Notes under the pieces: model-generated
The model's input: only the letters and a program-made list of their open reading frames with translations
What the model was told of the DNA's origin: nothing
Databases searched by the model: none
Origin: Arenicellales bacterium
GTDB taxonomy: Bacteria > Pseudomonadota > Gammaproteobacteria > Arenicellales > JAJDZL01
Reading direction: 5' to 3'
DNA length: 64,000 nucleotides
Assembly (NCBI GenBank): GCA_965116205.1
Contig: OZ220493.1
Location: forward strand, 2,165,072-2,229,071
In this document: piece after piece, positions 5,378 through 59,360 of the stretch
Numbering within the stretch: the first letter of the stretch is position 1
Layout of the letters: each line of letters starts with the position of its first letter
Translations under genes and position numbers: made by a program

Positions 5378-5437
5378 GTGCCCAACTCCACATTTTTCAT
5401 CGGTAAGTTCAATTGACAACCCGGTTCGGTGTGATTA

Positions 5438-6220
5438 ATGAAAGTCGTGACCTTCAACGCCAATGGTATTCGCTCGGCTGTACGGAAAGGATTCCATCCT
5501 TGGATGCTCGACCTGGATGCCGATTTTATCTGTATTCAGGAATTAAAAGCTCAACATGAGCAGTTGACGCCGGATATATTATCTCCGGAAGGCTATTTGG
5601 GGTATTTTCATTGCGCACAGAAAAAAGGCTATAGTGGAACAGCGGTCTATACCAAACACGCGCCAGTCAATGTGACTTATGGGTTGGGCTGGGAAGATTT
5701 TGACGCCGAAGGACGTTGTGTCCGAGTTGAATATGATGCGCTGACGATCATTTCGATTTACCTGCCATCAGGCACCAGTTCTGATGAGCGCCAGCAGTTC
5801 AAAGAAGTTGTTCTAGAACGACTGAAACCGATATTGATTGATTTTCAGAATCAGAACCGGAACTACATCATCTGCGGAGATGTAAACATTGCCCATCGCC
5901 CTGTCGACCTTCGCAACTGGCAGGGAAATCGCAATAACTCAGGATTTCTTCCACAGGAGCGCGCGTGGATGGATTGGCTGTTTGACGAGGTCGGATTCAT
6001 CGACGCCTTTCGGGTCATTGACACGCGTCCCGGGCAATACACCTGGTGGTCTAATCGTGGTAATGCTTATGCAAAGAATGTCGGTTGGCGATTGGATTAT
6101 CAGATCGTCTCACCGGGGTTGAAAGACCGAATTCAATCGGTTTCCATCTTCCGTGACATCAAGTTTTCCGATCATGCGCCGGTTATTTGTACCTATGACA
6201 TGGCGAATATGATCGCTTAG
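5438..6220 (+). CDS. xthA: exodeoxyribonuclease III (EEP family AP endonuclease)
   Basis: 260 aa. It starts MKVVTFNANGIRS, contains CIQELK, and has the C-terminal SDHAPV motif typical of ExoIII/APE1-family nucleases. Confidence 0.9.
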   Translation: MKVVTFNANGIRSAVRKGFHPWMLDLDADFICIQELKAQHEQLTPDILSPEGYLGYFHCAQKKGYSGTAVYTKHAPVNVTYGLGWEDFDAEGRCVRVEYDALTIISIYLPSGTSSDERQQFKEVVLERLKPILIDFQNQNRNYIICGDVNIAHRPVDLRNWQGNRNNSGFLPQERAWMDWLFDEVGFIDAFRVIDTRPGQYTWWSNRGNAYAKNVGWRLDYQIVSPGLKDRIQSVSIFRDIKFSDHAPVICTYDMANMIA

Positions 6221-44368: not shown

Positions 44369-46375
44369 CTAAATTTGCTCTATGATCTCTTCAATCTGAT
44401 CGAATTTCTTACTCTTGGCGAGGTATTCCGAATAGGCATTTTGTGCGCCTTTTATGAGAGTATCGTAATGAACAATTCGACTACCGGGAGAGATAACCGC
44501 CATCGATCGTGTAACAAGATCAGGGTCGTTACTCCCCTCTTCCATCAATTTTCCCAAAACGAAGACAACTTGGATTGTTGGAGATTTGTCTCCTTGATTG
44601 AGCAGTATTTTTTTCAGTATTTTAGAATAGTTCAATCCTTGGTCGACTAATTCCAGGAGTTTTACTTTCCGTCCGGCTCTTTTCAGTTCAACGATAATGT
44701 GAGTTCCTGCATAGGTCCGGTAGGCAATATCAACACGGCTGAGTTTTTCCTTTTCCGTTAAGTCATCAATAATCATCTTCTCCTTGGCGAGCCGCGATTC
44801 CATTTCTTCACTACCGGTAGCTCGTTCCCATGCTGGATCAAGGAGCCAGAGATGGTCAAACAAATACTTTTGTAAAACTCTTTCTTTGCCATCTTCGTTG
44901 ACGATACCTTGAAAATCTTTGATCACATTCAGCCGCGATTTAACAATCTCTCGATAGAGCGTTGCTTCCATTGCGTCTCGGTCTGCAAGAACTTCCAAAA
45001 GTTTGTTGATATCTTGTATGCCGGCGACAAACTCTTCGGTTGATTCTCGAATCCGCATCCGTTCGAATGCCAGGATACCGTGTCGGTATAGGGTCTTTCG
45101 ATCGTCGTTATTTTCAACTGGAAGGGCACTGAGGTTGGCAATCATTTTTTCAGCGCTTTTCTTAGAACCTGCCGGCAGGGATTCAAACCACTTGATCAGT
45201 ATTGGGGAATTTTCCTTCGCAATTTTCACTTCATGTTGACTTCTCCACTCGGACCAGCGTTTTTCGACTCGTTTTAGACTGGATTTTAGAAAAGACAATA
45301 ACTGAGTATAACGCTCGTCATCTTCCTGCATGCGCTGGCGGTCGCTGGTCGCGATATCCGGTTCATTATCTTGGTCAAGAAAATCAGCCTCAATCTGTCC
45401 AGTCAGGTACTTCGTATAGAGGTGACCATTATTCACCTTATCAAGAATATTTTCATGGATCAGGCGACCGCGGGCAAACACCACTATACTGTTTAGGTTA
45501 CCAGTATCCCTGCTATCCAACTGCTTGGGAAAACGCGCGGTCCCAAGCCAACCAGAGATCTGCCAATCTTTCGGCCAATCATCCATTCGGTTCGGTAACT
45601 CTTCAGATTCACAAAGGTTGGATGAGTACTCCGGGATCAGATCTAACTTGCCGAATGACCAAATGAATTGTGCAATACAAAGGTCTTCTCGCTCATTTTT
45701 GGTGATTGGTTGGCCATCAATTATGACCTCGAAGTTATGACGCTTGCCGATGATTGAGAAACGTCGTGCCAACCGCTTCCGCAATGCTTTGATTCTAGCA
45801 CCTAGCCTTTGTCGTTTGACTGCGTTCAGTAGTATCTTTGTGCCTTTGTGAACGGTTATTTCATCTTGCGACAAAGCGTCTGGCTGATAAGATTGTTGAT
45901 TTCTTTTTAGCGACTCGCGGATACCATCAACAAGAATGCGACAACCATGGTATTGGCCATCCTTAGTAGACTGTACTTCGATTATTTCGGCAATTGAAAA
46001 CAATGAGAGTTTACCCAGTCCTTTGCGTCCCATCACCGGTCGGCCTTTTTTTGTGAATTTGCCGGTTTCGTTATCTTCATCACGTCGGCGGTAACCGACG
46101 CGAAGATACTTGTCATTCATATCTTGGAACGTCATGCCGACGCCATCATCAACAATTTCTATCCGTTTCTCTTCCTGATCAACATTGATTGCAACATTTT
46201 CAGCATCCGCATCCCATGCATTGGCAACCACCTCTGTCAGCACGGCGGCAATATTACTATAGAGATTGATACCGAGGTGTTCAAAAACATTGAGGTCGAC
46301 TGCCATTTGATATTCATCGTCGCATCTGTCGGTTACAGGTTGAAAATTCGATAGTCTTTGTGAATTCTTATTCAT
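44369..46375 (-). CDS. GHKL (MORC/paraMORC-like, HATPase_c_3-type) ATPase fused to a C-terminal PD-(D/E)xK-like nuclease module
   Basis: 668 aa. Bergerat motifs: N-box TEVVANAWDADAENV (E48, N52, D55), G1 IVDDGVGM (76-81), G2 GRKGLGKLSLF (116-126). The C-terminus has RVDIAYRTYAGTHIIVELKRAG (D549...E563-x-K565). A GGAG SD lies upstream of the ATG. The gene lies 110 bp downstream of a Dcm-type methyltransferase on the same strand. Confidence 0.7.
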   Translation of the reverse strand: MNKNSQRLSNFQPVTDRCDDEYQMAVDLNVFEHLGINLYSNIAAVLTEVVANAWDADAENVAINVDQEEKRIEIVDDGVGMTFQDMNDKYLRVGYRRRDEDNETGKFTKKGRPVMGRKGLGKLSLFSIAEIIEVQSTKDGQYHGCRILVDGIRESLKRNQQSYQPDALSQDEITVHKGTKILLNAVKRQRLGARIKALRKRLARRFSIIGKRHNFEVIIDGQPITKNEREDLCIAQFIWSFGKLDLIPEYSSNLCESEELPNRMDDWPKDWQISGWLGTARFPKQLDSRDTGNLNSIVVFARGRLIHENILDKVNNGHLYTKYLTGQIEADFLDQDNEPDIATSDRQRMQEDDERYTQLLSFLKSSLKRVEKRWSEWRSQHEVKIAKENSPILIKWFESLPAGSKKSAEKMIANLSALPVENNDDRKTLYRHGILAFERMRIRESTEEFVAGIQDINKLLEVLADRDAMEATLYREIVKSRLNVIKDFQGIVNEDGKERVLQKYLFDHLWLLDPAWERATGSEEMESRLAKEKMIIDDLTEKEKLSRVDIAYRTYAGTHIIVELKRAGRKVKLLELVDQGLNYSKILKKILLNQGDKSPTIQVVFVLGKLMEEGSNDPDLVTRSMAVISPGSRIVHYDTLIKGAQNAYSEYLAKSKKFDQIEEIIEQI

Positions 46376-46485
46376 TGCCTTCTCCGTTTGAGATCAAAAT
46401 TTGCGCCATGGGTATTTTCGTATAGATTGCGAGTACGGTTTACTCAGCATTGAAGTTTGTTTTGTTACCCAGTGAAGAAGACAGA

Positions 46486-47595
46486 TTATGCGACTCTTTT
46501 CTGTGCATCAAGCCATTCCTCCACATGAAACAGGATGCTTTTGCCAATCGCTGCGCCGAGTTTGACAGGAACGGCATTGCCGATCAGACGGGCGACAGTG
46601 TTCCGGTTAATGGAAATACCTTTTGGTGCAAATTTGTACGCTCTCGGAAAACTCTGTAAAATGGCGCCCTCACGAAGAGAAATGGCACGGTCCTGCTCCG
46701 GATGTCCAAACCGTCCATTCCCGAAGCCATAATACTGTGTTGTCATCGTTGGTGCGGGGTCTGTCCAAGTCATCCGACCATAAACGCTACCGTAAGTCTT
46801 TCCTGATTTCTTCCGATGGCACAGGGCGCGGAGGTTTTCGTCCCAATCTCGCCAGGTCCCACCAGGCTTTGATGCGCGAATACGTTTCAGGTTGAGCAGT
46901 GACAATCCACATGCTGAATGTAATGGGTCGTCTACGTAAGTTTCTCCGGCCCTCAAAGGTGGCATTTTATTGATAGCATCCCAGACCGTTTTATGGCAAC
47001 CCATTGGTGTTGTGGGGCTGATAAGTTGAATGGAGGCAATCGTCGAAGCCAGCAGAACGAGCCTTTTTCGATGCTGTGGAACACCATAGTCAGCGCAGTT
47101 GACGACACTGTGGAAAATATGAAATTCACCATCTTTCAGAGTCTCTATGAAATCCATAAACACTTCTTGACGTTCTAGAAGTGGAACATTTTCCATCGTA
47201 ACAAGATGTGGTCTACACTCTTCAATAAGACGCGAAAAGTGGTTGAGAAGATTCCAGCGCCGGTCCTTAGGACTGGACCAAGATTGGTTGTAGGTTGAAA
47301 ATGGCTGACAGGGTGCACAGCCGGCTAGCAGTTTGAAGGAACCTTTGTCGAAGTGCCCAGCAACATCGGTTGCTGAGACCTTCTCAACCGACATCAACTT
47401 AAATGCAGCATTATTGTTTTTGGTGTAAGGATATTCGCAGGCTGGATCAATATCAACGCCAAGTCTGACATCGATATTGACACTTTCCAGTCCATGTGTA
47501 AGCCCGCCAGCTCCGCAAAAAAGATCAACACCGTGGATGGATGCCGCGATTTGCTTTAGCTTCTTTTGTTGCGTCGATTGATTTTGCTGGGGCAC
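46486..47595 (-). CDS. dcm: DNA (cytosine-5)-methyltransferase
   Basis: All canonical m5C motifs are present: I DLFCGAGG, IV CAPCQPFS, VI MENV, VIII QHRKRLV, X GNAVP. The stop is firm at 46486. The start is uncertain. The ORF-track start 47916 overlaps purB by 128 nt and has no ATG before motif I. I chose GTG 47595, 22 codons before motif I. Confidence 0.85.
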   Translation of the reverse strand: MPQQNQSTQQKKLKQIAASIHGVDLFCGAGGLTHGLESVNIDVRLGVDIDPACEYPYTKNNNAAFKLMSVEKVSATDVAGHFDKGSFKLLAGCAPCQPFSTYNQSWSSPKDRRWNLLNHFSRLIEECRPHLVTMENVPLLERQEVFMDFIETLKDGEFHIFHSVVNCADYGVPQHRKRLVLLASTIASIQLISPTTPMGCHKTVWDAINKMPPLRAGETYVDDPLHSACGLSLLNLKRIRASKPGGTWRDWDENLRALCHRKKSGKTYGSVYGRMTWTDPAPTMTTQYYGFGNGRFGHPEQDRAISLREGAILQSFPRAYKFAPKGISINRNTVARLIGNAVPVKLGAAIGKSILFHVEEWLDAQKRVA

Positions 47596-47788
47596 TGAGG
47601 GATCAATTTTTGATAAAGAAGAAAAATATGCATTTCTTTTCTTTTTGAGAAATTGTATATCAATTGACAGGCTATCTTCTCTGAAGAAATGAAGTTGATT
47701 CTTGAAAATTATCAGTCGTATTCGACAGAATGAGTGGGTTTTTGCAAAGATTCGAGTAAGCGATAATTTGTCAGCAAACCTCCTGAAT

Positions 47789-49177
47789 TTATGAAATTCC
47801 TTCACTTCGAGCGATGGCCGCCGCGTAACCGATGTAGTCACGGGGTACCAATTTGAGTAATTTGTTGCGATCTGATTCCGGCAGTTCAAGTCCACTGATG
47901 AATTCACGAATTTCAATTTCTGAGACGGTTACACCTCGGGTTAACTCTTTCATTCGCTCATAGGGCAGTTCACCGCCATGTTTGCGAAGGATGGTTTGAA
48001 TCGCTTCACTCAGCACCTCCCATGCATTATCTAGGTCTGCATTGAGTCGTTGTGGGTTGATTTCCAGCTTGGACAGTCCGTCGCGGATGGCTTGATACGC
48101 GATCAGACTGTGTCCCAACGGGACACCGAGATTTCTGAGTACGGTTGAATCACTCAAGTCTCTTTGCCATCGACTGATCGGTAGCTTCTCGGCTAGATGA
48201 CTGAACAGTGCATTCGCCACTCCTAAGTTGCCTTCCGCATTTTCAAAATCAATGGGATTAACCTTATGTGGCATCGCCGATGAGCCGACTTCACGCTGAA
48301 CAATTTTCTGCTTAAAGTAGCCAATCGAAATGTAACCCCAGACGTCACGGCAGAGATCCTGTAATATGGCATTGATTCGATGGAGAGCGTGACAGTATTC
48401 GGCGATGTAGTCATGCGATTCGGTTTGCGTGGTTACCGGACTGTATTCGAGTCCGAGTGATTCCACAAATTTTTTAGCCGCCTGTGGCCAATTCACCTCA
48501 GGGTTAGCTGTGAACAGTGAGTTGAAATTACCGGTAGCACCACTCAGTTTACCTTTGATGACAACATTGTCAAAGACGTTCAGTTGGTTCGAAAGACGCG
48601 TTGAAAATACTCTGAATTCCTTACCAACTGTTGTTGGCGAGGCCGGTTGTCCATGGGTACGGGCTAACATAGGTGTTTCTGCGAACTCAATGGCGAGTTG
48701 TGACAGTTGGTGAGTCAGTTGCGATAGCTCAGGGACCAGTATGTTGTCTCTGGCAGATTTCAACATTAGCCCGAAACAGTTGTCGTTGATATCGTAGGAG
48801 GTGCAACCAAAGTGTATCAGTTCCCGAGCCTGTTGCAGTTCTGCCAGGCTTTTTGCTCGATCTTTCAGAAAGTACTCGAGAGCCTTGACATCGTGATTAA
48901 TCTCCCGTTCGATCTCTTTTACGGCTAGGGCATCAGCAATTGAAAATTGCGTCACCAGGCTACGCAGACTCTTTATTGATTCGGTAGACAAAGGTACAAG
49001 GTCGGTGAACTCAGGCAGGTTAGCAAGTTGAATCAACCATTCTACTTCGACGTGTAATCGTAGTTTGATCAAACCAAATTCACTGAATAGTTCACTCAGT
49101 GGCTCAACTCGCTTGATGTAACGACCATCAAGCGGTGACAATGCTCTGATTGCTGCGGAGTCGGTCATTTCATCCAC
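47789..49177 (-). CDS. purB: adenylosuccinate lyase
   Basis: 462 aa with the fumarate-lyase signature GSSAMPHKVNP. The N-terminus SPLDGRYIKRV is typical of PurB. Confidence 0.95.
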   Translation of the reverse strand: MDEMTDSAAIRALSPLDGRYIKRVEPLSELFSEFGLIKLRLHVEVEWLIQLANLPEFTDLVPLSTESIKSLRSLVTQFSIADALAVKEIEREINHDVKALEYFLKDRAKSLAELQQARELIHFGCTSYDINDNCFGLMLKSARDNILVPELSQLTHQLSQLAIEFAETPMLARTHGQPASPTTVGKEFRVFSTRLSNQLNVFDNVVIKGKLSGATGNFNSLFTANPEVNWPQAAKKFVESLGLEYSPVTTQTESHDYIAEYCHALHRINAILQDLCRDVWGYISIGYFKQKIVQREVGSSAMPHKVNPIDFENAEGNLGVANALFSHLAEKLPISRWQRDLSDSTVLRNLGVPLGHSLIAYQAIRDGLSKLEINPQRLNADLDNAWEVLSEAIQTILRKHGGELPYERMKELTRGVTVSEIEIREFISGLELPESDRNKLLKLVPRDYIGYAAAIARSEGIS

Positions 49178-49204: not shown

Positions 49205-50131
49205 CTAGTTGGCGAGAAAGTTGTACCAGTAGTGATCAAATAACATGGCCGCAAACAGTATCGTCAGGTAGTGGATGGAAAATCTAAACGTTTTACGAGC
49301 CAGTCGATCGCTGTATTGTCGATACAACCTTACCGCGTAATAGAAAAACACCATTCCCAGCACTAAGGCAAACAGAAGGTAGGGCAACCCTAAAAAGCCG
49401 GTCGCAAAAGGCATTGCCGATACGGCAACCAATAATGTGGTATACAGCAGAATGTGCAGGCGCGTATATTTTTTTCCGTGAGTAACGGGTAGCATGGGGA
49501 TGCTAGCGTTCTGATAGTCTTGGTGACGATAAAGTGCCAATGCCCAAAAATGTGGTGGTGTCCAGCAGAAAATAATTAGAAACAGCAAAAATGCATCTGA
49601 GCTCAGTTCACCGGTCATGGCGGTCCAGCCCAGTACTGGAGGCGCAGCACCGGCAGCACCCCCAATCACGATGTTCTGTGGCGTTGCGTGTTTCAGAAAC
49701 ACTGTATAGATGATGGCATAGCCAATGAGTGAGGCGAAGGTCAGCACACTGGTTAACGTATTGACTACCACCGTTAGAATGAGCATTGAAACAGCCGCCA
49801 GCGTACAGGCGAAAATCAACGCCGAACGCGTCTCAACTCGGCCGCTTGGAATCGGTCGGTCGCGGGTGCGTTTCATCAGTGAATCCTTATCTTCATCAAG
49901 CACATGATTGACTGCGGCGCCAGCCGCTGCGGCGAGGCCAATGCCAAAGGTAGCAAACAGCAGTGTCAGTAGATTGGGGAGCTCGGGTACCGAGAGAAAC
50001 ATGCCCACGATCGCGGTAAAAATAATGAGCGCAACGACTCGTGGCTTGGTAATGGTGTAATATTCATGCGCCAAACTTCGAATGGCCAGCGATCGAGACA
50101 ATTGAGAAGAATTGGTAATGTTGGTCGACAT
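49205..50131 (-). CDS. cyoE: protoheme IX farnesyltransferase (heme O synthase)
   Basis: UbiA-family membrane prenyltransferase (YYTITKPRVVALIIFTAIVGM; NHVLDEDKDSLMKRTRDRPIPSG). I set the start at ATG 50131. The ORF-track start 50200 is a TTG that adds 23 non-conserved residues. Confidence 0.88.
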   Translation of the reverse strand: MSTNITNSSQLSRSLAIRSLAHEYYTITKPRVVALIIFTAIVGMFLSVPELPNLLTLLFATFGIGLAAAAGAAVNHVLDEDKDSLMKRTRDRPIPSGRVETRSALIFACTLAAVSMLILTVVVNTLTSVLTFASLIGYAIIYTVFLKHATPQNIVIGGAAGAAPPVLGWTAMTGELSSDAFLLFLIIFCWTPPHFWALALYRHQDYQNASIPMLPVTHGKKYTRLHILLYTTLLVAVSAMPFATGFLGLPYLLFALVLGMVFFYYAVRLYRQYSDRLARKTFRFSIHYLTILFAAMLFDHYWYNFLAN

Positions 50132-50277
50132 GGCTTGTTTGGCAGAGGGAGATGCAGTCGATTTCAATTGGCAGAATCTGACCGCATTAAACTTTTTCAA
50201 GTCAAAAAAGTTTCCGATTCCAGAAAATGGGTGTTGGCGTCAATCAATATGAATGCGAATGGTGAACAACTACGGTG

Positions 50278-51000
50278 TTAGTTTCGGCGAGACCGTAAAG
50301 CCAGTAGAAAGTATATCACAAGCAAAGTGGCACTGAGAGCAAACCACTGAAAGGCATAAGCCTTGTGACGTCCGATCCAGCTCGCATCCGGGGGTGGCCA
50401 TTGTCGCTCAAACCCTGCTGAGTGTTCGTCATCCAGTAGAAGGATTACGCCCTGAATCTGGTAAGGTACCGCAGTCGCAAATCGTCCAATGTCAATCGAC
50501 TGCCAGATACGTGGCCAGCGGTCTGATTGTAGGGGGGGTGGATCTTTCAAAAGGAAAACGTCGGCTGGCGGGATAATTGCAGTTCCAGTTACCGTTGCAT
50601 CACCGACTGGTGAGTCAGCCACCGGTATTTGGCTGCGGTCCGGGTGCCCGGGAATCCAACCACGATTGACTAAAATGGCGGAATTTCCACCTCGAAACAG
50701 CAAAGGTGTAATGACATGAAAGCCGGGTTGACCGTGACGCACGCGATTATCGAGTAAAAATTCGTGCTTCCCATCCCAAGTACCGGTGGCGCGGAGACGG
50801 AAGTACTCAAGTTCTTCAGGCACTTCAATGGCTGAACCGATATTCAATGGCGGAGCGTCGCTACGTTGCCAATAGAGATCACGTATTTCAGTCTTCTGTT
50901 GGGCGCGGTCAAGTTGCCAGAATCCTAATCCAAGAAGCATCGGTAGCAGTACGATCGTCCCCACTGTTGGTATGATGCTAAAGCGAAAATTGAGTTTCAC
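50278..51000 (-). CDS. SURF1-family cytochrome oxidase biogenesis protein
   Basis: 240 aa with a GTG start. It has an N-terminal TM followed by GFWQLDRAQQK, and a C-terminal TM with HKAYAFQWFALS, both typical of SURF1/Shy1. Confidence 0.85.
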   Translation of the reverse strand: MKLNFRFSIIPTVGTIVLLPMLLGLGFWQLDRAQQKTEIRDLYWQRSDAPPLNIGSAIEVPEELEYFRLRATGTWDGKHEFLLDNRVRHGQPGFHVITPLLFRGGNSAILVNRGWIPGHPDRSQIPVADSPVGDATVTGTAIIPPADVFLLKDPPPLQSDRWPRIWQSIDIGRFATAVPYQIQGVILLLDDEHSAGFERQWPPPDASWIGRHKAYAFQWFALSATLLVIYFLLALRSRRN

Positions 51001-51090
51001 GGATTAACAGAGTATCTGAGACAGTAAGTATGCCAATCATCTGAGGCTTGATTTTGCGGGCGGCACGTCTGCACGTTTCGGAAGGCTGAA

Positions 51091-51963
51091 CTATACCAGC
51101 AGTCGGCAGTAATTGCAGGCACGACCTAGACGCGTAGGAGTGCCGGATTTGTCGCAGTATCCGCATCCATGTTTACTAAAGAAAGAGAGAGCAGGATCAA
51201 GGTCGGTACAGGTTTTTCGAGTACCGTTAGCATTATCAGTTCTCATCAAATCAACGGCGCTGCGCCAGACTGACTGAATATAGTTGGCGTCGGGTGCTGT
51301 ATCGTCCCGGGTCTGTTTAAGCATTCCCAAGTTTTTTGTGGTTTGAATGACATCTGAATCAACCGTGATTTGTAGAGCATCAAGGTGCGTGATTTTCGCG
51401 CCACCAAGGCGAGCAAGCAGATGAATCCATTTCTGACTGGTCTTAGTTCCGCTAAGCAGTGGGAAACGGTTACGATTGTCTTTTCCCCGGGTAGCAAGGT
51501 CTTTGAGCAGCTGTTTGGCATCTACCGTTTTGCCATAGATAACTCGACTAACCGCACAGTGGCTTTCGAGTGCGATAGTCTGTGCAATGTCCAACCAAGC
51601 CTGCGGACCCTGCTCATTGCCCTGGGAAACTTTACTTTCTTTCAGTTTGTCGTCCAACTGCTCGACGGAAAATTTGAACAGTTCTAAAGGGTCAAACACC
51701 TCTGGATGGCGCTCATAGAGTTCAAGGCTATTCCACCAGCACCGACTCGAATCTCGCCCCCGGTCGATGGCGGCGATAAAAGTGAGGTAAAGTAGAATCG
51801 TTCTATCCGGCACATCGGATTCACGTAGAAATTCGACGCATTCAACCGGTGGCATTTTGGCCCATGACGCTGGAGAGGGTACATTACCTCTTGCGGTCAG
51901 ATCAAACCGTCCCTGGTAGTAATCTTCGACAATATATTCAACAATGCGCCCAAATTCAGGCAT
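51091..51963 (-). CDS. HhH-GPD-superfamily-like (endonuclease III / DNA glycosylase-like) protein with a C-terminal CxxC-x12-CxxC motif
   Basis: 290 aa. It has a helix-hairpin-helix-like segment FPLLSGTKTSQKWIHLLARLGG (168-188). This is followed by ITVDSDVIQTTKNLGML, comparable to VDTHVFRVSNRLGL of EndoIII. The C-terminus is HGCGYCDKSGTPTRLGRACNYC (C267, C270, C283, C286), not the EndoIII C-x6-C-x2-C-x5-C loop. Assignment is by eye only. Confidence 0.45.
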   Translation of the reverse strand: MPEFGRIVEYIVEDYYQGRFDLTARGNVPSPASWAKMPPVECVEFLRESDVPDRTILLYLTFIAAIDRGRDSSRCWWNSLELYERHPEVFDPLELFKFSVEQLDDKLKESKVSQGNEQGPQAWLDIAQTIALESHCAVSRVIYGKTVDAKQLLKDLATRGKDNRNRFPLLSGTKTSQKWIHLLARLGGAKITHLDALQITVDSDVIQTTKNLGMLKQTRDDTAPDANYIQSVWRSAVDLMRTDNANGTRKTCTDLDPALSFFSKHGCGYCDKSGTPTRLGRACNYCRLLV

Positions 51964-52416
51964 ATTGGCTACTCAATGGAACCCATGGTGGATGAATTGC
52001 AGATTTTTTGTCAGGGGCCAGCAGTCAGCAAGGTGCTTTTTTCAATAGTTTCATTTTTTATTAGATTTTTGCAACGTGGTCAATAACAAAAAACAGTTCA
52101 TTTAATTTGAAGAAAGCTGGCAACTTAACGGTAACAGATAAACAATAGCAAAACAAATCAATAGATTGTGAAAGTGAGTTCTATAACCCAGTATTATGGT
52201 TATGTGTTCTAGGCAGTTGTCCGTGTGAAGTAATCGGCATATTCTCGTTAGTTGTGTTCATACCCAATCCGGAGAATCTAAAGGAAAAGGGGGTAGCACC
52301 TGATTTGAGTATTTTACTTCTCTTTAATCCCTGATTCTACAATGCAGATTAGAAAAACAGGTGTGCTGAACCGAATGAGTAAATTCTGTCTCGTAGTTCT
52401 GATAACATATACTACT

Positions 52417-52429
52417 TGACAATATGTCA
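52417..52429. promoter_or_regulatory. 13-bp palindrome, candidate operator in the long leader upstream of the HTH-methyltransferase
   Basis: TGACA-ATA-TGTCA, embedded in CTTGACAATATGTCAG (which also contains a TTGACA hexamer). It lies about 270 nt upstream of the methyltransferase ATG. Confidence 0.2.
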
Positions 52430-52695
52430 GATTCGAAACTGTTGTTTGGGTTATTTTCTTCTCCCGAATAGAGTGGCGATGAGTCGGCGATAACCGCCAT
52501 TCTGAAGGAGGTAATACTTAATGAAGATGCTCATTTCCTAATAATGTGCGAAACAGTTAGAAAATAATAATAACCGACCAAAAAACAGTCTTGGACGACG
52601 AGTAGTTACTATTTTAGATTTTGTTGGGTATTCACTCAAAATCAACTGTATGAAATCGGTAACCGAAAAATTATATTTGCCTTGATATAAAGCAT

Positions 52696-53721
52696 ATGCA
52701 GTATTCTGAAAGAACTTACTTGTCTGTTGTGGAGGTTGCAAAGTACACCGGATTATCCGTTCGAGAAATTCACCAGCGTGTCAAATCAGGGGATATCTCG
52801 GCTACAAAATCAACGGCGGGCCAATATCGTTTTAACCTGTGTAACATCTCTCACCTAAAACCGAATTCACACCTCGCTCAGACTCAACAGCCGACAAATG
52901 AGTCTGTTGAAGAAATCGAAAAGTCGGGAACGAAACAGACGATTGTCTGTGGTGATTCAAGAGGCATGATGAAACTAGAAGACAATAGCGTTCATTTAGC
53001 AATCACCTCACCACCATACTTTAATGCAAAAATGTATTCTTCAGATTCGAATGATCTTGGAAATGTACATGATCTTGATGTTTGGTTGGAACAAATCGGA
53101 GAAGTGTGGGCGGAAGTCTACCGGACACTATGTCCTGGGCGAAAATTTTTTCTGAATATTATGAACTTGCCAGTAAAACAGAATAAGTCTTTTCGTTCGC
53201 TCAATTTGTGTGGTAAGAGTATCGATCTGTGTGAAGATAAAGGATTTATTTTTAAACGAGATATTGTTTGGCACAAGACTAATGGAGTTCGTGCCCACTT
53301 TGGAACGTATCCTTATCCTGGTGGCATTCTCATCAACCACATGCATGAATTTATATTGGAATTTGAGAAACCACAACCTAAGCAGGTCTCAAAGTATCGT
53401 CATTTATCGGATGAACAGAAGCAACAGTCGAAGCTAGACAAAGAGTTTTGGCTTTCTCTTAAAAATTCAGATGTTTGGCTAATGAAACCTGAAAAAAGCG
53501 GTGGAAATCGCAATCATGCCGCACCATTTTCTATTGAACTGCCTGCACGATTAATTAAAGCGTATAGTTTCGTAGGTGAGACGATACTGGATCCTTTTTT
53601 AGGTTCAGGTACAACATTAGTTGCCGCTTCCGAATTGCTCAGGAATGGTGTTGGTTATGACATAAACCCAGACTTTTGCGATATGGCAAAAAAAAGAATT
53701 GGTAACGAAGATTCTAGTTGA
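52696..53721 (+). CDS. DNA amino-methyltransferase, beta-class order, SPPY motif IV (N4-cytosine-type signature), with an N-terminal HTH domain
   Basis: 341 aa. The N-terminal excisionase/MerR-like HTH is LSVVEVAKYTGLSVREIHQRVKSGDI. Motif IV is AITSPPYFN (S105-Y108). Motif I is DPFLGSGTT (from D299), near the C-terminus. The region is AT-rich. Confidence 0.85.
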   Translation: MQYSERTYLSVVEVAKYTGLSVREIHQRVKSGDISATKSTAGQYRFNLCNISHLKPNSHLAQTQQPTNESVEEIEKSGTKQTIVCGDSRGMMKLEDNSVHLAITSPPYFNAKMYSSDSNDLGNVHDLDVWLEQIGEVWAEVYRTLCPGRKFFLNIMNLPVKQNKSFRSLNLCGKSIDLCEDKGFIFKRDIVWHKTNGVRAHFGTYPYPGGILINHMHEFILEFEKPQPKQVSKYRHLSDEQKQQSKLDKEFWLSLKNSDVWLMKPEKSGGNRNHAAPFSIELPARLIKAYSFVGETILDPFLGSGTTLVAASELLRNGVGYDINPDFCDMAKKRIGNEDSS

Positions 53722-53724
53722 TTC

Positions 53725-54900
53725 ATGGCTACAAAGCATCAACAAGACAAAGGAGTTTCAAAACGAACTTTTGCTCAATCTAGCGATATAAAGTCTCGTG
53801 ATACTTATCAGTATCGACTAGACATGAAGAAAAAAGGGGTAAGGGAATTAGAGTTCCTGCCTTATCTCCAACAAATACTGCAAAACAAGTTTAAAGACCA
53901 AAATCTCACAGTGAGTAAATCTGGTGGTGACGCACTACATTGGTTTCTCCGGCACGGAGAACTTATTAGCAGAGAACCTGATTTTATAGCCAAAATTAAT
54001 GGTGAAGAAACGAAAATCGAATTTCAAATGGCGAATGAAACGCCCAAAGAGTTCTTTGATTTCAAGGAAACCAAGCTCGGCAAAAAACCTAAAAATAAAC
54101 CGCGCCAACCATATACGGATCGAATATTTTTTTATGTTGTTCGAGACAAGAACAGTTACAGTTTTTTGACTCCAAAGTGGATTTGGGAAAATGGAAGTGA
54201 CCGGTTCATCTCAGCGTGGAGAAGTCAAGGACGGAGTATTCCAATTAGTGTTTTTTTGAATCAATGCCGGGATGGAAGTGAATCTCTTCGAAATATATTG
54301 CAACTGATTGATGACAAAATACTACTTTTGGAATTTCAAAACGAGATTATTGATATTGAATCAGATGCAATATCTGCCCAACTACAAAAGTTGGTCGATG
54401 AGAGTGTTGAGTTTAGAATCGTGCCGAGGTCACTTGAAGGGATCTATTATGCTTGTTTTCTAATGAATAGATTAAATCGATATCCAGATGGCTCAAACAC
54501 ATGGCTTGTGTATCTATCTTCTTTCCTAAATGAATCAATATCCAATTTGAACTTTCAACGCTTTATGTTTTCATTTGATTTTCTTTATTTTAAATGCCAC
54601 CAATTTGCGGAGAATGAGAGAAAAATAGTAGGTGATGTGTTAAGCAGGTCAAAGAGCGCTGTAGAGACGAGAATTGACAACTACGGTGTATTCAGGGTTG
54701 ATCGCAATGAATCTCAAATTGAAGGAACTAGACGATTATTGTTTTCAATGAATCTACTAGAAGATGTTATGCAAGATGCAAGATTTTCATTCGGTTTCAA
54801 TTTCCCACAAGTTCGAAAAATCTATGAAATGATTCCAGACGTTTCTAAATTGGCTAATGAAGTTCGAGAATTTTATAAATCAGAAAAAGACCACATCTAG
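53725..54900 (+). CDS. putative type II restriction endonuclease (PD-ExK motif), partner of the upstream methyltransferase
   Basis: 391 aa starting 3 nt after the methyltransferase stop. It has a candidate catalytic motif in SREPDFIAKINGEETKIEF (P85-D86 ... E95-x-K97). I recognised no other family. One 60-nt line (53761-53820) hand-counts to 21 G+C. Confidence 0.55.
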   Translation: MATKHQQDKGVSKRTFAQSSDIKSRDTYQYRLDMKKKGVRELEFLPYLQQILQNKFKDQNLTVSKSGGDALHWFLRHGELISREPDFIAKINGEETKIEFQMANETPKEFFDFKETKLGKKPKNKPRQPYTDRIFFYVVRDKNSYSFLTPKWIWENGSDRFISAWRSQGRSIPISVFLNQCRDGSESLRNILQLIDDKILLLEFQNEIIDIESDAISAQLQKLVDESVEFRIVPRSLEGIYYACFLMNRLNRYPDGSNTWLVYLSSFLNESISNLNFQRFMFSFDFLYFKCHQFAENERKIVGDVLSRSKSAVETRIDNYGVFRVDRNESQIEGTRRLLFSMNLLEDVMQDARFSFGFNFPQVRKIYEMIPDVSKLANEVREFYKSEKDHI

Positions 54901-55267
54901 CCTCAACGATTTTCACTTCTGATGTTGTTTCATAGAAATTCACATGAGTGGTAGCTTCATGCATTCCGCTCAGATGAAATTGCCGGCCGACCGCGCAGAT
55001 GTTCCTATTATCTCTCGCCGTTACGATATCTCAACCTACGGTGAATTGAGACATTCTACCTAACCCAGTGCTACCCTCTAAACTGAATTTCACTGTGGCA
55101 ACGAGGCGGAATATTTTTCTGCTAACTTCGAGCAGAGGTATTCACGAGACCAATTTCCAGATTTGCTTCACAGAAAAATGAGACTCAAAATAATTTCAAT
55201 CTCATCTCTATTTCATTTAGATCTTACCACAGCATCATTAACACAATATGCAAGTTAAGAGTTAGTC

Positions 55268-55507
55268 ATGAATACACAATCATTTGTCATTGTGCTACTA
55301 CTGTTGGTGATGATCGCCAGCTTGGTTTCAGCATTTTGGTACATGATGAAAGATCGCGGCACCGGCAACCGCACAGTCAAGGCGTTGACTATGCGGGTAT
55401 CAATCTGGGCGCTACTGTTTTTTCTGATCGTCGGTGGAATTTATACCGGTTGGATCACGCCCAGCAATACGATACCCATACCACCCCGGTCAAGTGCCAG
55501 TGAATGA
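55268..55507 (+). CDS. twin-transmembrane-helix small protein (DUF2909-like) commonly found in cox clusters
   Basis: 79 aa with two hydrophobic helices (FVIVLLLLVMIASLVSAFWY and VSIWALLFFLIVGGIYTGW). Its position opposite coxC matches other proteobacterial cox loci, from memory. Confidence 0.6.
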   Translation: MNTQSFVIVLLLLVMIASLVSAFWYMMKDRGTGNRTVKALTMRVSIWALLFFLIVGGIYTGWITPSNTIPIPPRSSASE

Positions 55508-55525
55508 CGTTGTCGAACGTTTGGA

Positions 55526-56401
55526 CTAGACGACGTAGACAAAAATAAACAGCCCCACCCACACCGTATCAACGAAGTGCCAGTACCAGGCGGCCGCTTC
55601 AAATCCAAAATGGTGGTCCGGTTTGAAATGTCCGCGCATACAGCGAATCAGGATGACCGCGAGTATGATGGCACCAATCGTCACATGTGCACCATGAAAA
55701 CCGGTCAGCATGAAGAATGTTGCGCCGTAGACTCCGGTACCTAATGTCAGCCCCAAGTCGGCGTAGGCGTGTGCGTATTCATAACCTTGTAGATAGAGAA
55801 ATACAAATCCCAGAATAACAGTAATGGCTAGCCACGTGATCAACGCAGTGCGCTGGTTCTTTTTCAGTGCCCAATGAGCGAAGGTAATCGTAACGCTGGA
55901 GGTGAGCAGAATCAGCGTGTTCCACACGGGGATTCCCCACGCGCCGATGGTTGAGAACTGTCCGGCAGTAACCGGTGTATCAGCGGCAATCAATTCAGCG
56001 CCCATGGGGCCGGCGGTCGGCCAACCACCATCATATCCCATCCACAGCAGGTCGGTTTCAGCCAGCCAGGGCACGGCGAGATTTCTCAGATAAAACAGGG
56101 TGCCGAAGAAACCGGCAAAGAACATCACTTCGGAAAAAATAAACCACAGCATCCCCATCCGAAATGAAATATCTACCTTGGCGTTGTACTTGCCTCCTTC
56201 GCTTTCTAGTACGACAACCCCAAACCAGCCAAACATCATGAAAGCAATGATGAGACCACCGGCCAGCATGACCCAAGGTGCCATGTTGACATCGTTCATC
56301 AGCATGACAAAGCCGCCAGCTAGGGCGAATAGCCCGATGGAAGCGACCAATGGCCAAGGACTGGGGTCGGGGAGGTAATATTCGCCATTCGACGTACTCA
56401 T
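55526..56401 (-). CDS. coxC: cytochrome c oxidase subunit III
   Basis: 291 aa and 7-TM. It has the typical C-terminus HHFGFEAAAWYWHFVDTVWVGLFIFVY. Confidence 0.93.
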   Translation of the reverse strand: MSTSNGEYYLPDPSPWPLVASIGLFALAGGFVMLMNDVNMAPWVMLAGGLIIAFMMFGWFGVVVLESEGGKYNAKVDISFRMGMLWFIFSEVMFFAGFFGTLFYLRNLAVPWLAETDLLWMGYDGGWPTAGPMGAELIAADTPVTAGQFSTIGAWGIPVWNTLILLTSSVTITFAHWALKKNQRTALITWLAITVILGFVFLYLQGYEYAHAYADLGLTLGTGVYGATFFMLTGFHGAHVTIGAIILAVILIRCMRGHFKPDHHFGFEAAAWYWHFVDTVWVGLFIFVYVV

Positions 56402-56444
56402 CAGTTATCCTCTTTTGTTAGTAATGTTGAATCTATTGACTTAT

Positions 56445-57020
56445 TCAGCCGCTTGTATGCTCACCATGAGCGGCAGTCGATTGACTGACCGGGTAAAAGA
56501 TGTAGGACAGTGTCAATTTATCAATGGTTTCCGGCAGATCTGAGTTGACATAGAATCGAACCGGCATTTCTCGCGCTTCACCGGCTGCCAGTGTCTGATT
56601 ACTGAAACAGAAACACTCAAGCTTGACCAGGTTTTTCATGGCCTCCATCGGTAACACGCTCGGAATAGCCTGTCCGACCATTGATTCGTTTGATGTATTG
56701 GTAACCAGATAGTTGACCAGATGAATTTCACCGGGGTGTACCTTAGTTGTGCGAACGACTGGTTTCATAGTCCAGGGCATATCTTCGTTTTCAGTTGCAG
56801 CAAACTCAACAGTGATACCTCGGTCTGCTTGAATGGCAATGTCTGAAGAGTCATGCTGTTCGACAGCAATGGTTGATGGGCAACCGATGCCGAGATGCTC
56901 ACAGGAATAATCAGTCACCGGTGCCAGTGCGTAACCCAAACCAAACATTAAAATCATCAGTCCCGAGAACAATATGATCCAACGCGCTTGCGAGCGACGA
57001 TTGGTGGTGGCGTTCAACAT
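56445..57020 (-). CDS. ctaG: cytochrome c oxidase assembly protein CtaG/Cox11, divergent tandem copy
   Basis: 191 aa with an N-terminal TM and the copper-site motif KLECFCF. The membrane-proximal motif is altered to APVTDYSCEHLGIGC, versus VPLYDLFCEITGVGG in the neighbouring copy. Confidence 0.88.
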   Translation of the reverse strand: MLNATTNRRSQARWIILFSGLMILMFGLGYALAPVTDYSCEHLGIGCPSTIAVEQHDSSDIAIQADRGITVEFAATENEDMPWTMKPVVRTTKVHPGEIHLVNYLVTNTSNESMVGQAIPSVLPMEAMKNLVKLECFCFSNQTLAAGEAREMPVRFYVNSDLPETIDKLTLSYIFYPVSQSTAAHGEHTSG

Positions 57021-57076
57021 ACTAGCAACCTCCTTGTTTAAGCGATGAACATCAAAATCAAAGCGTCGTCATTCAT

Positions 57077-57652
57077 TCAGCTGTTTGCCTGTTGAGCCAT
57101 GGTGTCAATTGGCTGACCCAGCGGAAAAAAGCTGTAGGAGAGTGTCAAAGTATTGATCTCATCCGACAGCTTCGAATTAATGTAGAAGCGAACCGGCATT
57201 TCCCGCATTTCACCGGCTGCAAGCGTTTGGGCATCGAAGCAGAAACACTCAAGCTTGACTAGGTTTTTTGCGGCCTGCATGGGTGAAATACTTGGAATGG
57301 CCTGTCCAACCATGGGTTGTTTGGATGTATTCTTGACTAGATAATTCACTTCGTGAATGACGCCAGGATTTACTTTGGTTTTACGAACCAAGGGTGTGAT
57401 GGTCCAAGGCATATTCTGGTTGGCTGTCGCCGTGAATTCCACCGTAACTTCTCGTCTCGCTTCGATGATAGCTTGCTGCTGTTGTTCGACGGCAATGGTG
57501 GGTTTGCCGCCGACCCCAGTGATTTCACAGAACAGGTCATAAAGTGGCACCAGTGCATAACCGAATCCAAACATGAGGACGACGGCACCAGAGAGCAAAA
57601 CGACCCATCGACCATTGGCGCGGCGCGTTGTTCCAACAACAGGCATAACCAT
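57077..57652 (-). CDS. ctaG: cytochrome c oxidase assembly protein CtaG/Cox11, canonical copy
   Basis: 191 aa with VPLYDLFCEITGVGG and KLECFCF, the hallmark Cox11 motifs. Confidence 0.92.
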   Translation of the reverse strand: MVMPVVGTTRRANGRWVVLLSGAVVLMFGFGYALVPLYDLFCEITGVGGKPTIAVEQQQQAIIEARREVTVEFTATANQNMPWTITPLVRKTKVNPGVIHEVNYLVKNTSKQPMVGQAIPSISPMQAAKNLVKLECFCFDAQTLAAGEMREMPVRFYINSKLSDEINTLTLSYSFFPLGQPIDTMAQQANS

Positions 57653-57762
57653 TACCGGATATATTCAACGACCATGATGGCAATGAAAAATGCCATGGCG
57701 AACAAGCCCAACACCAAGGCGTTACGTTTGACTTTGCTCTGCAGTTCTTTCGCTGTTTTCAA
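57652..57762 (-). CDS. possible small single-TM protein between ctaD and ctaG (cytochrome oxidase small assembly protein-like)
   Basis: This ORF is not in the ORF track. It starts at TTG 57762, preceded by GGGG. It has 36 codons (LKTAKELQSKVKRNALVLGLFAMAFFIAIMVVEYIR). Its stop overlaps the ctaG ATG (TAATG). I recall similarly placed ~40-aa genes annotated in other cox clusters. Confidence 0.35.
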   Translation of the reverse strand: MKTAKELQSKVKRNALVLGLFAMAFFIAIMVVEYIR

Positions 57763-57776
57763 TGGCTACCCCTGAC

Positions 57777-59360
57777 TTATTTGACCGCAGGTGGAGTTTC
57801 AAAAGTGTGATAGGGTGGTGGTGAAGCAACGGTCCATTCAAGTCCTTCTGCACCTTCCCATACCTGTGCCGTCGCTTTTTTGTGTTTGCCGCGTACCGCT
57901 TGAATAATGATGTAAACAAACAGCAGCTGCGCCAATCCCAGGCCGAATGCACCGATGGTTGAAACCATGTTAAATTCTGTGAACTGCAATGCATAGTCGG
58001 GAATACGGCGCGGCATGCCCGCCAGCCCTAGGAAGTGTTGTGGAAAAAATGTGATGTTGAAGAAAATGGTGGTCAGCCAGAAATGTGTTTTACCCAATCG
58101 TTCACGATACATCCGCCCGGTCCACTTCGGTAGCCAGTAGTAAACCGCTCCCATCATTGACATGATTGATCCGGCAAAGAGGACGTAGTGAAAATGAGCC
58201 ACGACAAAATAGGTGTCGTGGTATTGAAAATCTGCCGGCACAATGGCCAACATTAGTCCTGACAATCCGCCAATCGTAAATAGAAAGACGACCGCCAAGG
58301 CGAACAGCATGGGGGTTTCGAAAGTGATCGAGCCACGCCACATCGTGGCAACCCAATTGAAAACCTTGACACCAGTCGGTACGGCAATCAACATGGTTGC
58401 GTACATGAAATACAGTTCACCGGCCAGTGGCATACCCACGGTAAACATGTGATGCGCCCAGACGATGAATGACAGAAAGGCAATACCGGCGGTGGCAAAC
58501 ACCATACTGTCATAGCCAAACAGTGGCTTGCGGGAGAACGTCGGCACGATCTGGGATACGATGCCAAACGCTGGTAGGATCAGAATATATACTTCAGGGT
58601 GTCCGAAAAACCAGAATATGTGTTGAAACAGTACCGGGTCACCACCCCCGGCCGGGTCAAAAAATGCGGTGCCGAAATGCCGGTCGGTGAGTAGCATGGT
58701 GACCGCGCCGGCCAAGACAGGCATGGCCGCAATGAGTAAGAATGCAGTGATCAGCCAGGTCCAGACAAACAACGGCAGTTTCATGAGTGTCATGCCCGGT
58801 GCGCGCATATTCATGATGGTCACGATGACGTTGATCGCGCCGAGAACCGACGATATTCCCATCATATGAATGGATAGAATCGTCATGTCCACGCCGATTC
58901 CCCCCTGAATTGAGAGCGGCGCGTAGAGTGTCCACCCAGAGGCCGGTCCACCGCCGACTGTGAATAGAGAACCTAACAGCATGGCGAACGCAAATGGCAG
59001 AATCCAAAAACTCCAGTTGTTCATGCGCGGCAGTGCCATATCCGGCGCACCAATCATCATCGGAATCAGCCAATTGGCAAAACCGACGAATCCTGGCATG
59101 ATGGCACCAAAGATCATAATCAACGCGTGCATGGTGGTGAGTGAGTTGAATAGTTCAGGGTTCACGACCTGTAAACCCGGTTGAAAAAGTTCGGCCCGAA
59201 TAGCTAGTGCCATCACCCCGCCTACAAAGAACATGGTCAGTGAAAAGATCAGATACATCGTACCGATATCTTTGTGATTGGTGGTTGTCAACCAGCGGAC
59301 AATGCCGCTGGGACGGTGGTCGTGGTGGTGTGCGTGTGCTTCGGTGTGCGCAGCGGACAT
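57777..59360 (-). CDS. ctaD: cytochrome c oxidase subunit I
   Basis: 527 aa. Heme-copper oxidase signatures are present: [23 protein letters not shown], and VAHFHYVL. Confidence 0.97.

Follow-up and report, generated by a model that had tools for sequence, protein, structure and literature searches.

A divergent HhH-GPD-superfamily protein of Arenicellales with a C-terminal four-cysteine module, predicted to act as a DNA glycosylase

The HhH-GPD fold is among the best studied in DNA repair. The active site of Escherichia coli EndoIII pairs K120 in the helix-hairpin-helix (HhH) with D138, and the Schiff-base lysine occupies the motif GRK in EndoIII and GTK in OGG1, whereas MutY has a serine there. 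Cysteine-rich structural or DNA-binding sites are known from several glycosylases, including the C4 zinc fingers of Fpg/Nei, the zinc "snap" of TAG, and the permuted CXXC of DME/ROS1. Brig1 excises enzymatically modified bases of invading DNA. END nucleases join a PLD nuclease to an inactivated EndoIII/OGG-like domain (PF21790) that senses hypermodified phage DNA (PMC12191111). Here, we analyze 64,000 nucleotides of contig OZ220493.1 of an Arenicellales bacterium (the whole stretch is called the window) and, within it, a gene at 51091-51963 on the minus strand, whose product of 290 residues, read from an ATG start, is a divergent member of the HhH-GPD superfamily and is predicted to be a DNA glycosylase/lyase with a C-terminal four-cysteine (Cys4) metal module.

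As judged from its modeled fold and its motifs, the protein is probably an active HhH-GPD DNA glycosylase in which the Cys4 module replaces the Fe-S loop and which has no tie to the restriction-modification (R-M) genes beside it. An HhH-GPD glycosylase is a known kind of enzyme; the novelty lies in an unmodeled clade in which CxxC-x12-CxxC is invariant, the Lys-Asp loop is long, and partnership with DUF6884 recurs. Although the fold itself is so well studied, Pfam, NCBIfam, and PADLOC lack a model for this clade of about 590 representatives, none of its relatives has been solved, and our literature search found no description of it. Since the lysine and aspartate are kept but the Fe-S loop is swapped, the clade offers a natural test of whether that cofactor serves structural DNA binding or redox signaling.

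Fold and superfamily placement

The protein by itself gave 0 Pfam and 0 NCBIfam matches at E ≤ 1, and neither the single protein nor a profile of its close family found a usable match in Pfam, NCBIfam, PADLOC, PHROG, or the PDB sequences. Structures were predicted with AlphaFold2 from a 29-sequence alignment (predicted local distance difference test (pLDDT) = 87.1, predicted template modeling score (pTM) = 0.86) and from a diverse 53-sequence alignment (pLDDT = 91.9, pTM = 0.90). Both models have the identical all-helical topology and show neither an evident signal peptide nor a transmembrane segment, as expected of a soluble protein. Compared with the PDB by Foldseek, the two models matched HhH-GPD enzymes almost exclusively, followed by noise, and the matches comprised MUTYH/MutY, Mig (1kea), NTHL1, EndoIII, MagIII, OGG1, and AGOG, as well as TAG, DrAlkA, MBD4, and the QNG1/DUF2419 nucleotide glycosylase. 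The kinship with EndoIII, MutY, Mig, MagIII, and related enzymes that the annotation had proposed to examine by structure prediction was thus recovered with each model. The best match overall came from predicted viral structures (BFVD) and was the "Endonuclease III" of Halogranum tailed virus 1 (R4T712; E = 2e-5, template modeling score (TM) = 0.64/0.76, probability 1.0, 17% identity over 274 columns). However, this protein is viral and 240 residues long, its name is an automatic annotation, and its structure is a prediction.

Profiles of the wider family point in the same direction. Among 53 domain-only relatives, nine touched PF00730 (HhH-GPD) below threshold, with a best E of 1.4e-4; four touched the AGOG model at E ≥ 0.089 and one DUF2400, and no other Pfam family recurred more than two times. 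A profile trimmed to the HhH-GPD core retrieved 10 PDB sequences at E ≤ 10, all of them EndoIII, NTHL1, or AGOG, and aligned pvaVDvHVrRvteNLG onto iaVDTHVeRVskRLG, which is the catalytic-Asp motif. The gathering score of PF00730 was reached by neither the protein nor its relatives, and an hhalign comparison of the wide family profile with the MutY of the same window was not significant. Because the structures and the deeper profiles agree, though each match is below threshold alone, there is little doubt from fold and motif that the protein belongs to the HhH-GPD superfamily and lies outside its present family models. The EndoIII-like layout that had been proposed from the letters of the sequence is upheld by the same three observations, namely the structures, the sub-threshold HhH-GPD and AGOG matches of the relatives, and the core profile on the catalytic-Asp motif.

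Comparison with the solved enzymes shows a mixture of shared and divergent features. Like EndoIII/NTHL1 (2abk, 1orn/1p59, 8a5f, 7rdt), the protein has a two-lobed all-helical HhH-GPD fold. However, the sequence match is not significant (E 0.15-2), the Nth models of Pfam and NCBIfam give no match, TM is just 0.37-0.55, and the protein carries about 60-80 extra residues of N-terminal helices. MutY/MUTYH and Mig.MthI (7ef8, 3n5n, 1kg2, 1kea) are the top-ranked structural matches with the lowest root-mean-square deviation (RMSD, 5.3-6.8 Å), and they likewise hold a metal site at the C terminus of the catalytic domain, but they lack the hairpin lysine and have the canonical Fe-S loop. AGOG (PF09171; 1xqo, 7ou3) shares the fold and a long, noncanonical Lys-to-Asp spacing; its TM is 0.44-0.55 overall, and the values for 7ou3 (0.49/0.55) are among the best for solved structures. 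Pa-AGOG is also the top PDB sequence match, although a weak one (E = 0.49). Unlike the protein described here, AGOG is archaeal and has no cysteine cluster. QNG1/DUF2419 (7u07, 7u5a) has an HhH-GPD-like fold, a similar length (about 320 residues), a Lys/Asp pair with long spacing, and the best Foldseek E values (0.018-0.07), whereas it acts on a free nucleotide, has no Cys4 module, and superposes poorly (RMSD 11-13 Å, TM 0.35-0.44). The Pfam DUF2419 model matched neither the window protein nor any of the 53 relatives. The END nucleases likewise employ an HhH-GPD-superfamily domain, in defense islands and against noncanonical DNA bases, but their domain no longer has its catalytic residues and is joined to a nuclease, whereas the family described here keeps the lysine and the aspartate; the window protein is single-domain, has no PF21790 match, and is not in a defense system.

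Active-site motifs and the four-cysteine tail

The HhH-like segment spans residues 166-188 (RFPLLSGTKTSQKWIHLLARLGG; 51400-51468, minus strand) and is followed by a Gly/Pro loop and catalytic-Asp motif at residues 198-213 (QITVDSDVIQTTKNLG; 51325-51372, minus strand), within which the segment VDSDVIQTTKNLG corresponds to residues 201-213. Two of these, RFPLLSGTKTSQKWIHLLARLGG and VDSDVIQTTKNLG, are the very segments quoted in the initial annotation, and both are present as described. Conservation was counted over 53 diverse family members. In the HhH segment, P168 and G187 are invariant (53/53), W179 is found in 52/53, P186 in 49/53, the candidate Schiff-base K174 in 48/53, and the hairpin G172 in 47/53. 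K174 lies two residues past G172, and the G-x-K-[T/I] pattern resembles the G-R-K-T of EndoIII and the G-T-K-V of OGG1; the MutY of the same window reads GRST at its hairpin. Over the stretch from HhH to aspartate, the family consensus is FPLLxGxK..W.R.La.PGGA......PVaVDxHV. The Asp motif itself has the consensus PVAVDxHVxRxTxNLG, in which D202 is replaced once by Asn (52/53) and V201 and L212 are equally conserved (52/53 each). Candidates for the catalytic Asp and Lys that were to be looked for are both present, the lysine being assigned by motif position.

The family profile aligns the Asp motif onto IAVDTHVERVSKRLG of EndoIII (1orn/1p59), onto VDTHVHRV of D. radiodurans EndoIII and NTHL1, and onto IPIPVDYRVARLT of Pa-AGOG. 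In consensus form, VD-T-HV-x-RV-x-x-RLG of EndoIII/NTHL1 aligns with VD-x-HV-x-R-x-T-x-NLG of the family, and the lysine after the hairpin glycine leads us to expect bifunctional chemistry as in those enzymes, although the Lys-Asp loop of the family is 10 residues longer. The pair in AGOG is Lys140 and Asp172, and the alignment of PVAVD on IPIPVD is consistent with this Asp172.

The C-terminal module comprises residues 266-286 (GCGYC-x12-CNYC; 51106-51168, minus strand), with C267, C270, C283, and C286 as candidate ligands. The tail reads HGCGYC-x12-CNYC, giving CxxC-x12-CxxC spacing, and its conservation is nearly complete: G266, C267, C283, and C286 are found in 53/53 relatives and C270 in 52/53. 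A further cysteine, C252, is conserved in the close family only (33/53). The AlphaFold2 model from 53 sequences has pLDDT 92-94 across this tail, which lies at the C terminus of the catalytic domain, the position of the Fe-S ligands in EndoIII and MutY. EndoIII/NTHL1 also have four C-terminal cysteines, but these are arranged as C-x6-C-x2-C-x5-C. That EndoIII-type motif was seen only in the bona fide MutY of the window (4238-5419, minus strand), whose canonical loop reads CTPKSPQCETCPVATLC; the contrast between a noncanonical tail here and a canonical loop there had been noted beforehand and holds. We found no published description of an HhH-GPD enzyme with a CxxC-x12-CxxC Cys4 motif. CxxC-x12-CxxC spacing is typical of Zn sites, and CxxC pairs are able to coordinate a cubane as well. 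From the sequence pattern, Zn is the more probable occupant of the tail, and an Fe-S cluster is possible but less likely. By functional analogy, the C-terminal CxxC-x16-CxxC of Fpg/Nei resembles the family motif, although Fpg/Nei have an H2TH fold. TAG differs in that its Cys2His2 site bridges two termini, and DME/ROS1 differ in that an Fe-S cluster is also retained.

Taken together, these features suggest how the protein may work. It would bind DNA through its HhH and Cys4 module and would flip a damaged or noncanonical base into the cleft between the lobes, where the N-glycosidic bond would be cut with the assistance of D202. K174 would then form a Schiff base and nick the abasic site. Since the lysine is present as in EndoIII, OGG1, and AGOG, and not as in MutY or AlkA, such a lyase step is expected, and the predicted enzyme is probably bifunctional (glycosylase/apurinic-apyrimidinic lyase). 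The four cysteines would hold a structural metal in place of the Fe-S cluster loop, with Zn somewhat likelier from the spacing.

The locus in Arenicellales and the wider family

The open reading frame (ORF) is a real gene and not a chance ORF, because 30 close homologues match it in length and >15 Arenicellales genomes (metagenome-assembled genomes, scanned with a tight family alignment) contain intact orthologues, and because its ratio of nonsynonymous to synonymous substitution in unsaturated pairs (0.13-0.22) indicates purifying selection. Its G+C content (0.49) and G+C at third codon positions (GC3, 0.47) are like those of SURF1 and PurB. The corresponding values are 0.40 and 0.35 for the neighboring DNA methyltransferase (MTase) and 0.36 and 0.32 for ORF391 next to it. 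The earlier caveat that the gene has backbone composition and was not acquired together with the R-M genes is thus confirmed.

In the window, the gene stands between the coxA-ctaG-coxC-DUF2909 genes and the SURF1-ctaB genes of a cytochrome oxidase cluster. SURF1 (50278-51000, minus strand; PF02104, E = 9e-41) is its downstream neighbor on the same strand after a 90-nt gap and is followed by ctaB (49205-50200) and then purB. A promoter and terminator scan around the gene gave nothing informative, with no terminator-like site between the gene and SURF1. On its other side, a variable gap reaches to DUF2909 (51964-55267) and here contains a low-G+C R-M-like pair (G+C 0.35-0.41). An N4/N6 DNA MTase with an N-terminal helix-turn-helix (HTH) (52696-53721, plus strand; PF01555, E = 1e-41; HTH_17; PADLOC MTase_II, E = 3e-56) is divergent from our gene at a distance of about 730 bp. 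ORF391 (391 residues; 53725-54900, plus strand) starts 4 nt past the MTase stop. It has no match in Pfam, NCBIfam, PADLOC, or PHROG and is presumed to be the restriction partner of the MTase, a type II endonuclease of an orphan family. A second R-M-like module lies at 44369-47916, between purB and an rluX-type pseudouridine synthase gene, and comprises a Dcm-type 5-methylcytosine MTase (46486-47916, minus strand; PF00145, E = 4e-50) and a 668-residue HATPase_c_3 protein (44369-46375, minus strand; PADLOC REase_II, E = 1e-114).

The order coxA-ctaG-coxC-DUF2909 (opposite strand), followed by our gene-SURF1-ctaB-purB-rluX, is kept in 12 distinct Arenicellales genomes (loci L009-L015, L018, L019, L021, L022, and L024, the last a short contig limited to coxC, DUF2909, and the beginning of the gene). 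None of these 12 loci contains the MTase, ORF391, Dcm, or HATPase-restriction endonuclease (REase) genes of the window. The absence of the Dcm/HATPase module indicates that two independent R-M insertions are present in the window, within 10 kb. Across loci, DUF2909 and the gene are 0.3-7.6 kb apart (about 0.3 kb in L010, L011, L013, and L014, and 0.7-7.6 kb where the gap holds other cargo), and the cargo is a permease in L001, HipBA and a porin in L015, and Fic/DOC with an ankyrin-FGE protein in L018; L022 has an HTH-IrrE and PIN pair in the neighboring coxC-DUF2909 interval. From these varied contents, the slot is a general integration hotspot, and the R-M pair of the window is one cargo. Where the R-M insertion begins and ends could not be established, as the orthologous intergenic DNA is too diverged and there are no convincing terminal repeats or target-site duplication. 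The initial annotation had placed the gene correctly between SURF1 and the low-G+C MTase/ORF391 pair inside the cox cluster; its remark that no repair gene is expected there is misleading, because the gene is a fixed resident of this slot. In Arenicellales, the gene is a fixed, vertically kept chromosomal resident at the head of the SURF1-ctaB-purB string, and the R-M pair beside it is an incidental later insertion without functional tie.

Four other Arenicellales copies (L016, L017, L020, and L023) and the distant members L002, L004, and L008 are located elsewhere, with OTCase, PfkB, DsbD, transposases, and KwaAB among their neighbors; in L004, KwaAB and a transposase adjoin the family member. 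No operon partner is conserved across these locations. As to the two questions raised for comparative genomics, the gene is present in relatives that lack the R-M genes, and it does not always stand next to SURF1. An MTase near a family member was found only in the window and L016 among the Arenicellales loci, and the two MTases are unrelated. In L016 (3631-8870), the orthologue is preceded by uvrB, a 392-residue circularly permuted N4/N6 MTase, and a 97-residue Cro/C1 HTH protein, whereas a sister genome has PfkB in place of the MTase insertion; this is a second, independent MTase insertion directly upstream of a family member. In the Arenicellales genome OZ243975.1, the intact copy L020 is accompanied at another location by a degraded remnant (L025, 8001-8234), which lacks an intact ORF and matches only residues 212-289 at the Cys4 end. 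This remnant points to past duplication or relocation of the gene.

Beyond Arenicellales, a profile search of a representative library of 1.84 billion proteins returned 590 cluster representatives (50% identity) at E ≤ 1e-3, many with several domains. Among 64 long members, DUF6884 occurs in 25 and DUF7662 in 17, and single members carry PF21790 (OGG-like), HD, HEPN_Swt1, AAA/STAND, AbiEi HTH, HARE-HTH, DUF4268, or UPF0150. The commonest fused architecture is a small N-terminal domain, DUF6884, and the HhH-GPD/Cys4 domain, in which the catalytic residues and the cysteines are all invariant, and one distant relative, P0049, combines PF21790, DUF6884, and the HhH-GPD/Cys4 domain. DUF6884 is YaaA-like, and Pfam curators link it to DNA-lesion binding and base flipping (PMC11701544). 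PADLOC assigns the DUF6884 moiety to PDC-M57A (E = 1e-27 to 7e-31) and, weakly, to DpdC, a DUF328/YaaA-family protein that hydrolyzes dPreQ0 to dADG within DNA. The PDC-M57A match covers only the DUF6884 moiety of fused relatives. Neither the window nor loci L001-L025 gave a match to hidden Markov models of DUF6884 and of the N-terminal domain of the fused proteins, and the window gene accordingly does not qualify as part of the PDC-M57 candidate system. Our literature search found nothing on PDC-M57, DUF7662, DUF7664, or DUF7669. In locus L085 (8007-9627), a stand-alone family member directly adjoins a stand-alone DUF6884 gene, and in L073 (7971-9590) the adjoining 229-residue gene is a BLAST homologue of that DUF6884 gene with a weak YaaA-family Pfam match; both pairs mirror the frequent fusion. 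The partnership provides a concrete handle on the function of DUF6884.

On long metagenomic contigs, family members have as neighbors Eco57I/MmeI-type and Type ISP R-M enzymes, a UvrD helicase with REase-ARP, and McrB (AAA_5 + DUF2461)-McrC pairs. In L029 (4272-9368) and L031 (3284-12850), DUF6884-fused relatives are flanked by McrB-like (AAA_5 + DUF2461) and McrC genes, and L031 also holds a 1402-residue Eco57I-type R-M enzyme; these may be composite modification-dependent restriction loci. The association of the wider family with DNA-modification and defense genes is real, and the DUF6884/PDC-M57A fusions and R-M/McrBC neighborhoods tie the clade to the defense glycosylases, that is, Brig1, the END nucleases, and the 5-hydroxymethylcytosine glycosylase. 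It is these associations, and not the neighbors in the window, that keep the idea of a modified-base glycosylase open.

Candidate functions and other features of the window

Several observations weigh against an active DNA glycosylase. The matches to solved structures are all distant (TM 0.35-0.55, Foldseek E 0.02-0.4), and the best PDB E values in the second Foldseek search belong to QNG1, which is a nucleotide and not a DNA enzyme. Likewise, the sequence matches to known families all fall below curated thresholds. K174 is equated with the nucleophile of EndoIII/OGG1 by motif position, none of the alignments placed it on K120 of EndoIII, and the Lys-to-Asp spacing is 28 as compared with 18 in EndoIII, nearer to that of AGOG/QNG1 (32). 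Moreover, the window copy departs from the consensus at R181H, P186L, P198Q, H/Q204D, and R206I, so that its activity may be altered. These five departures all surround the HhH and Asp motifs, and P0003, the closest relative of the window protein, also has L186 and Q198; specificity could be changed, or activity relaxed, in this sublineage. Inactivated EndoIII domains that serve as sensors are a precedent, and the protein might accordingly be a catalytically inert DNA-binding or lesion-sensing protein that has lost its chemistry at least in the window copy. However, the window protein and nearly all relatives keep K174 and D202, the whole gene is under purifying selection, and no effector partner is encoded nearby, so we judge this quite improbable. 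A QNG1-like salvage hydrolase, cleaving the N-glycosidic bond of a free modified nucleoside or nucleotide, would be in keeping with the rank of QNG1 (top or second PDB match by E, aligned over the full length), with its long-spaced Lys/Asp pair (PDB titles name K199 and D231 mutants), and with the weak resemblance of the fusion partner DUF6884 to DpdC of the 7-deazaguanine pathway. Against this, QNG1 superposes far worse than MUTYH/MutY/AGOG (RMSD 5-7 Å, TM up to 0.55), HhH-GPD and AGOG match among the 53 relatives where DUF2419 does not, the family is fused to DNA-binding or DNA-targeting domains and neighbors R-M genes, and the Cys4 tail is placed where EndoIII and MutY have DNA-contacting Fe-S loops. 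We consider such an activity very improbable.

The genomic setting bears on the remaining alternatives. The initial annotation had suggested an accessory of the adjacent R-M pair, either repairing deamination or methylation damage caused by the MTase, in the manner of Mig or Vsr, or acting as a glycosylase-type restriction effector. Immediate adjacency to the N4/N6 MTase and putative REase, the second, unrelated MTase with its Cro/C1 HTH upstream of the L016 orthologue, and the presence of Mig.MthI among the structural matches agree with this proposal. Unlike Mig.MthI, however, the gene has no conserved MTase or R-M linkage (0/12 syntenic loci). The link is unsupported because those 12 loci lack the R-M genes, the slot carries varied cargo (HipBA, Fic/DOC, or a permease elsewhere), and the composition differs; moreover, the gene and the MTase are divergently oriented and some distance apart, and Mig-type enzymes have the canonical Fe-S motif and no hairpin lysine. 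The functional tie is largely refuted, and we leave it a very slim chance. A role in cytochrome c oxidase biogenesis, with the four cysteines handling metal or heme and co-expression with SURF1 and heme O synthase, would suit the gene order kept in 12 genomes, the short gap without a terminator-like site, and the invariant cysteines. We rejected it as scarcely credible, since the protein is soluble and has the fold and motifs of a DNA glycosylase, cox genes are not found near the four other Arenicellales copies or any distant member, and all family fusions are related to nucleic acids. The protein could also be a stand-alone surveillance glycosylase that excises or senses modified bases of phage, with the slot as a defense-island anchor. 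The fusions to DUF6884, STAND/AAA NTPases, HEPN, HD, and AbiEi HTH, the R-M, McrB-McrC, and UvrD + REase-ARP neighbors, KwaAB at L004, the independent presence of MTases immediately upstream in the window and in L016, and the EndoIII/OGG-like precedent against hypermodified phage DNA (PMC12191111) speak in its favor. Yet no DUF6884, nuclease, or NTPase partner of the Arenicellales proteins is encoded in the window or the loci examined, the gene has backbone composition and the same housekeeping slot in 12 species, and other copies lie among metabolic genes. Furthermore, PADLOC gives no match for the HhH-GPD/Cys4 domain, no family member was found on the viral contigs searched with the close or fused-class alignment, and the neighborhoods were read from a few long metagenomic contigs without a statistical background. 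On this evidence, a surveillance role appears unlikely.

For the predicted active glycosylase, the DUF6884 and R-M/McrBC associations suggest oxidized, alkylated, or enzymatically modified bases as substrates. A broader and rather doubtful proposal is that the family, most clearly in its DUF6884 fusions, provides prokaryotic immunity or the housekeeping of DNA modification with a new base-excision module. In such a module, the YaaA/DpdC-like base-flipping domain and the intact glycosylase/lyase would jointly find and excise hypermodified bases, 7-deazaguanine derivatives being one candidate, and would act beside R-M, Type ISP, and McrBC systems; the stand-alone gene of Arenicellales would then be a domesticated member that marks a defense and accessory integration hotspot. 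For the window, the R-M adjacency is incidental to a resident gene of the cox/SURF1 locus; the family is a good experimental lead even though the R-M pair that first drew attention to it is not.

Some further features of the window were observed. The listed Dcm ORF overlaps the 3' end of purB by 128 nt, and the true start is probably further downstream, as the Pfam domain begins at residue 129. Within the cox cluster, tandem ctaG/Cox11 genes at 56445-57020 and 57077-57652 encode 191 residues each; because both map onto the single ctaG of every related locus, they represent a lineage-specific tandem duplication. Many proteobacteria place ctaA between SURF1 and ctaB. No ctaA/COX15 gene (heme A synthase) lies between these two genes in the window (49205-59360) or in L001 and L005, and ctaA must be elsewhere in these genomes. 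Finally, the mutY gene divergently adjoins a putative exonuclease III/Xth-like ORF (5438-6220, plus strand; assigned by reading its translation), so that two base-excision-repair genes appear to stand side by side at 4238-6220.

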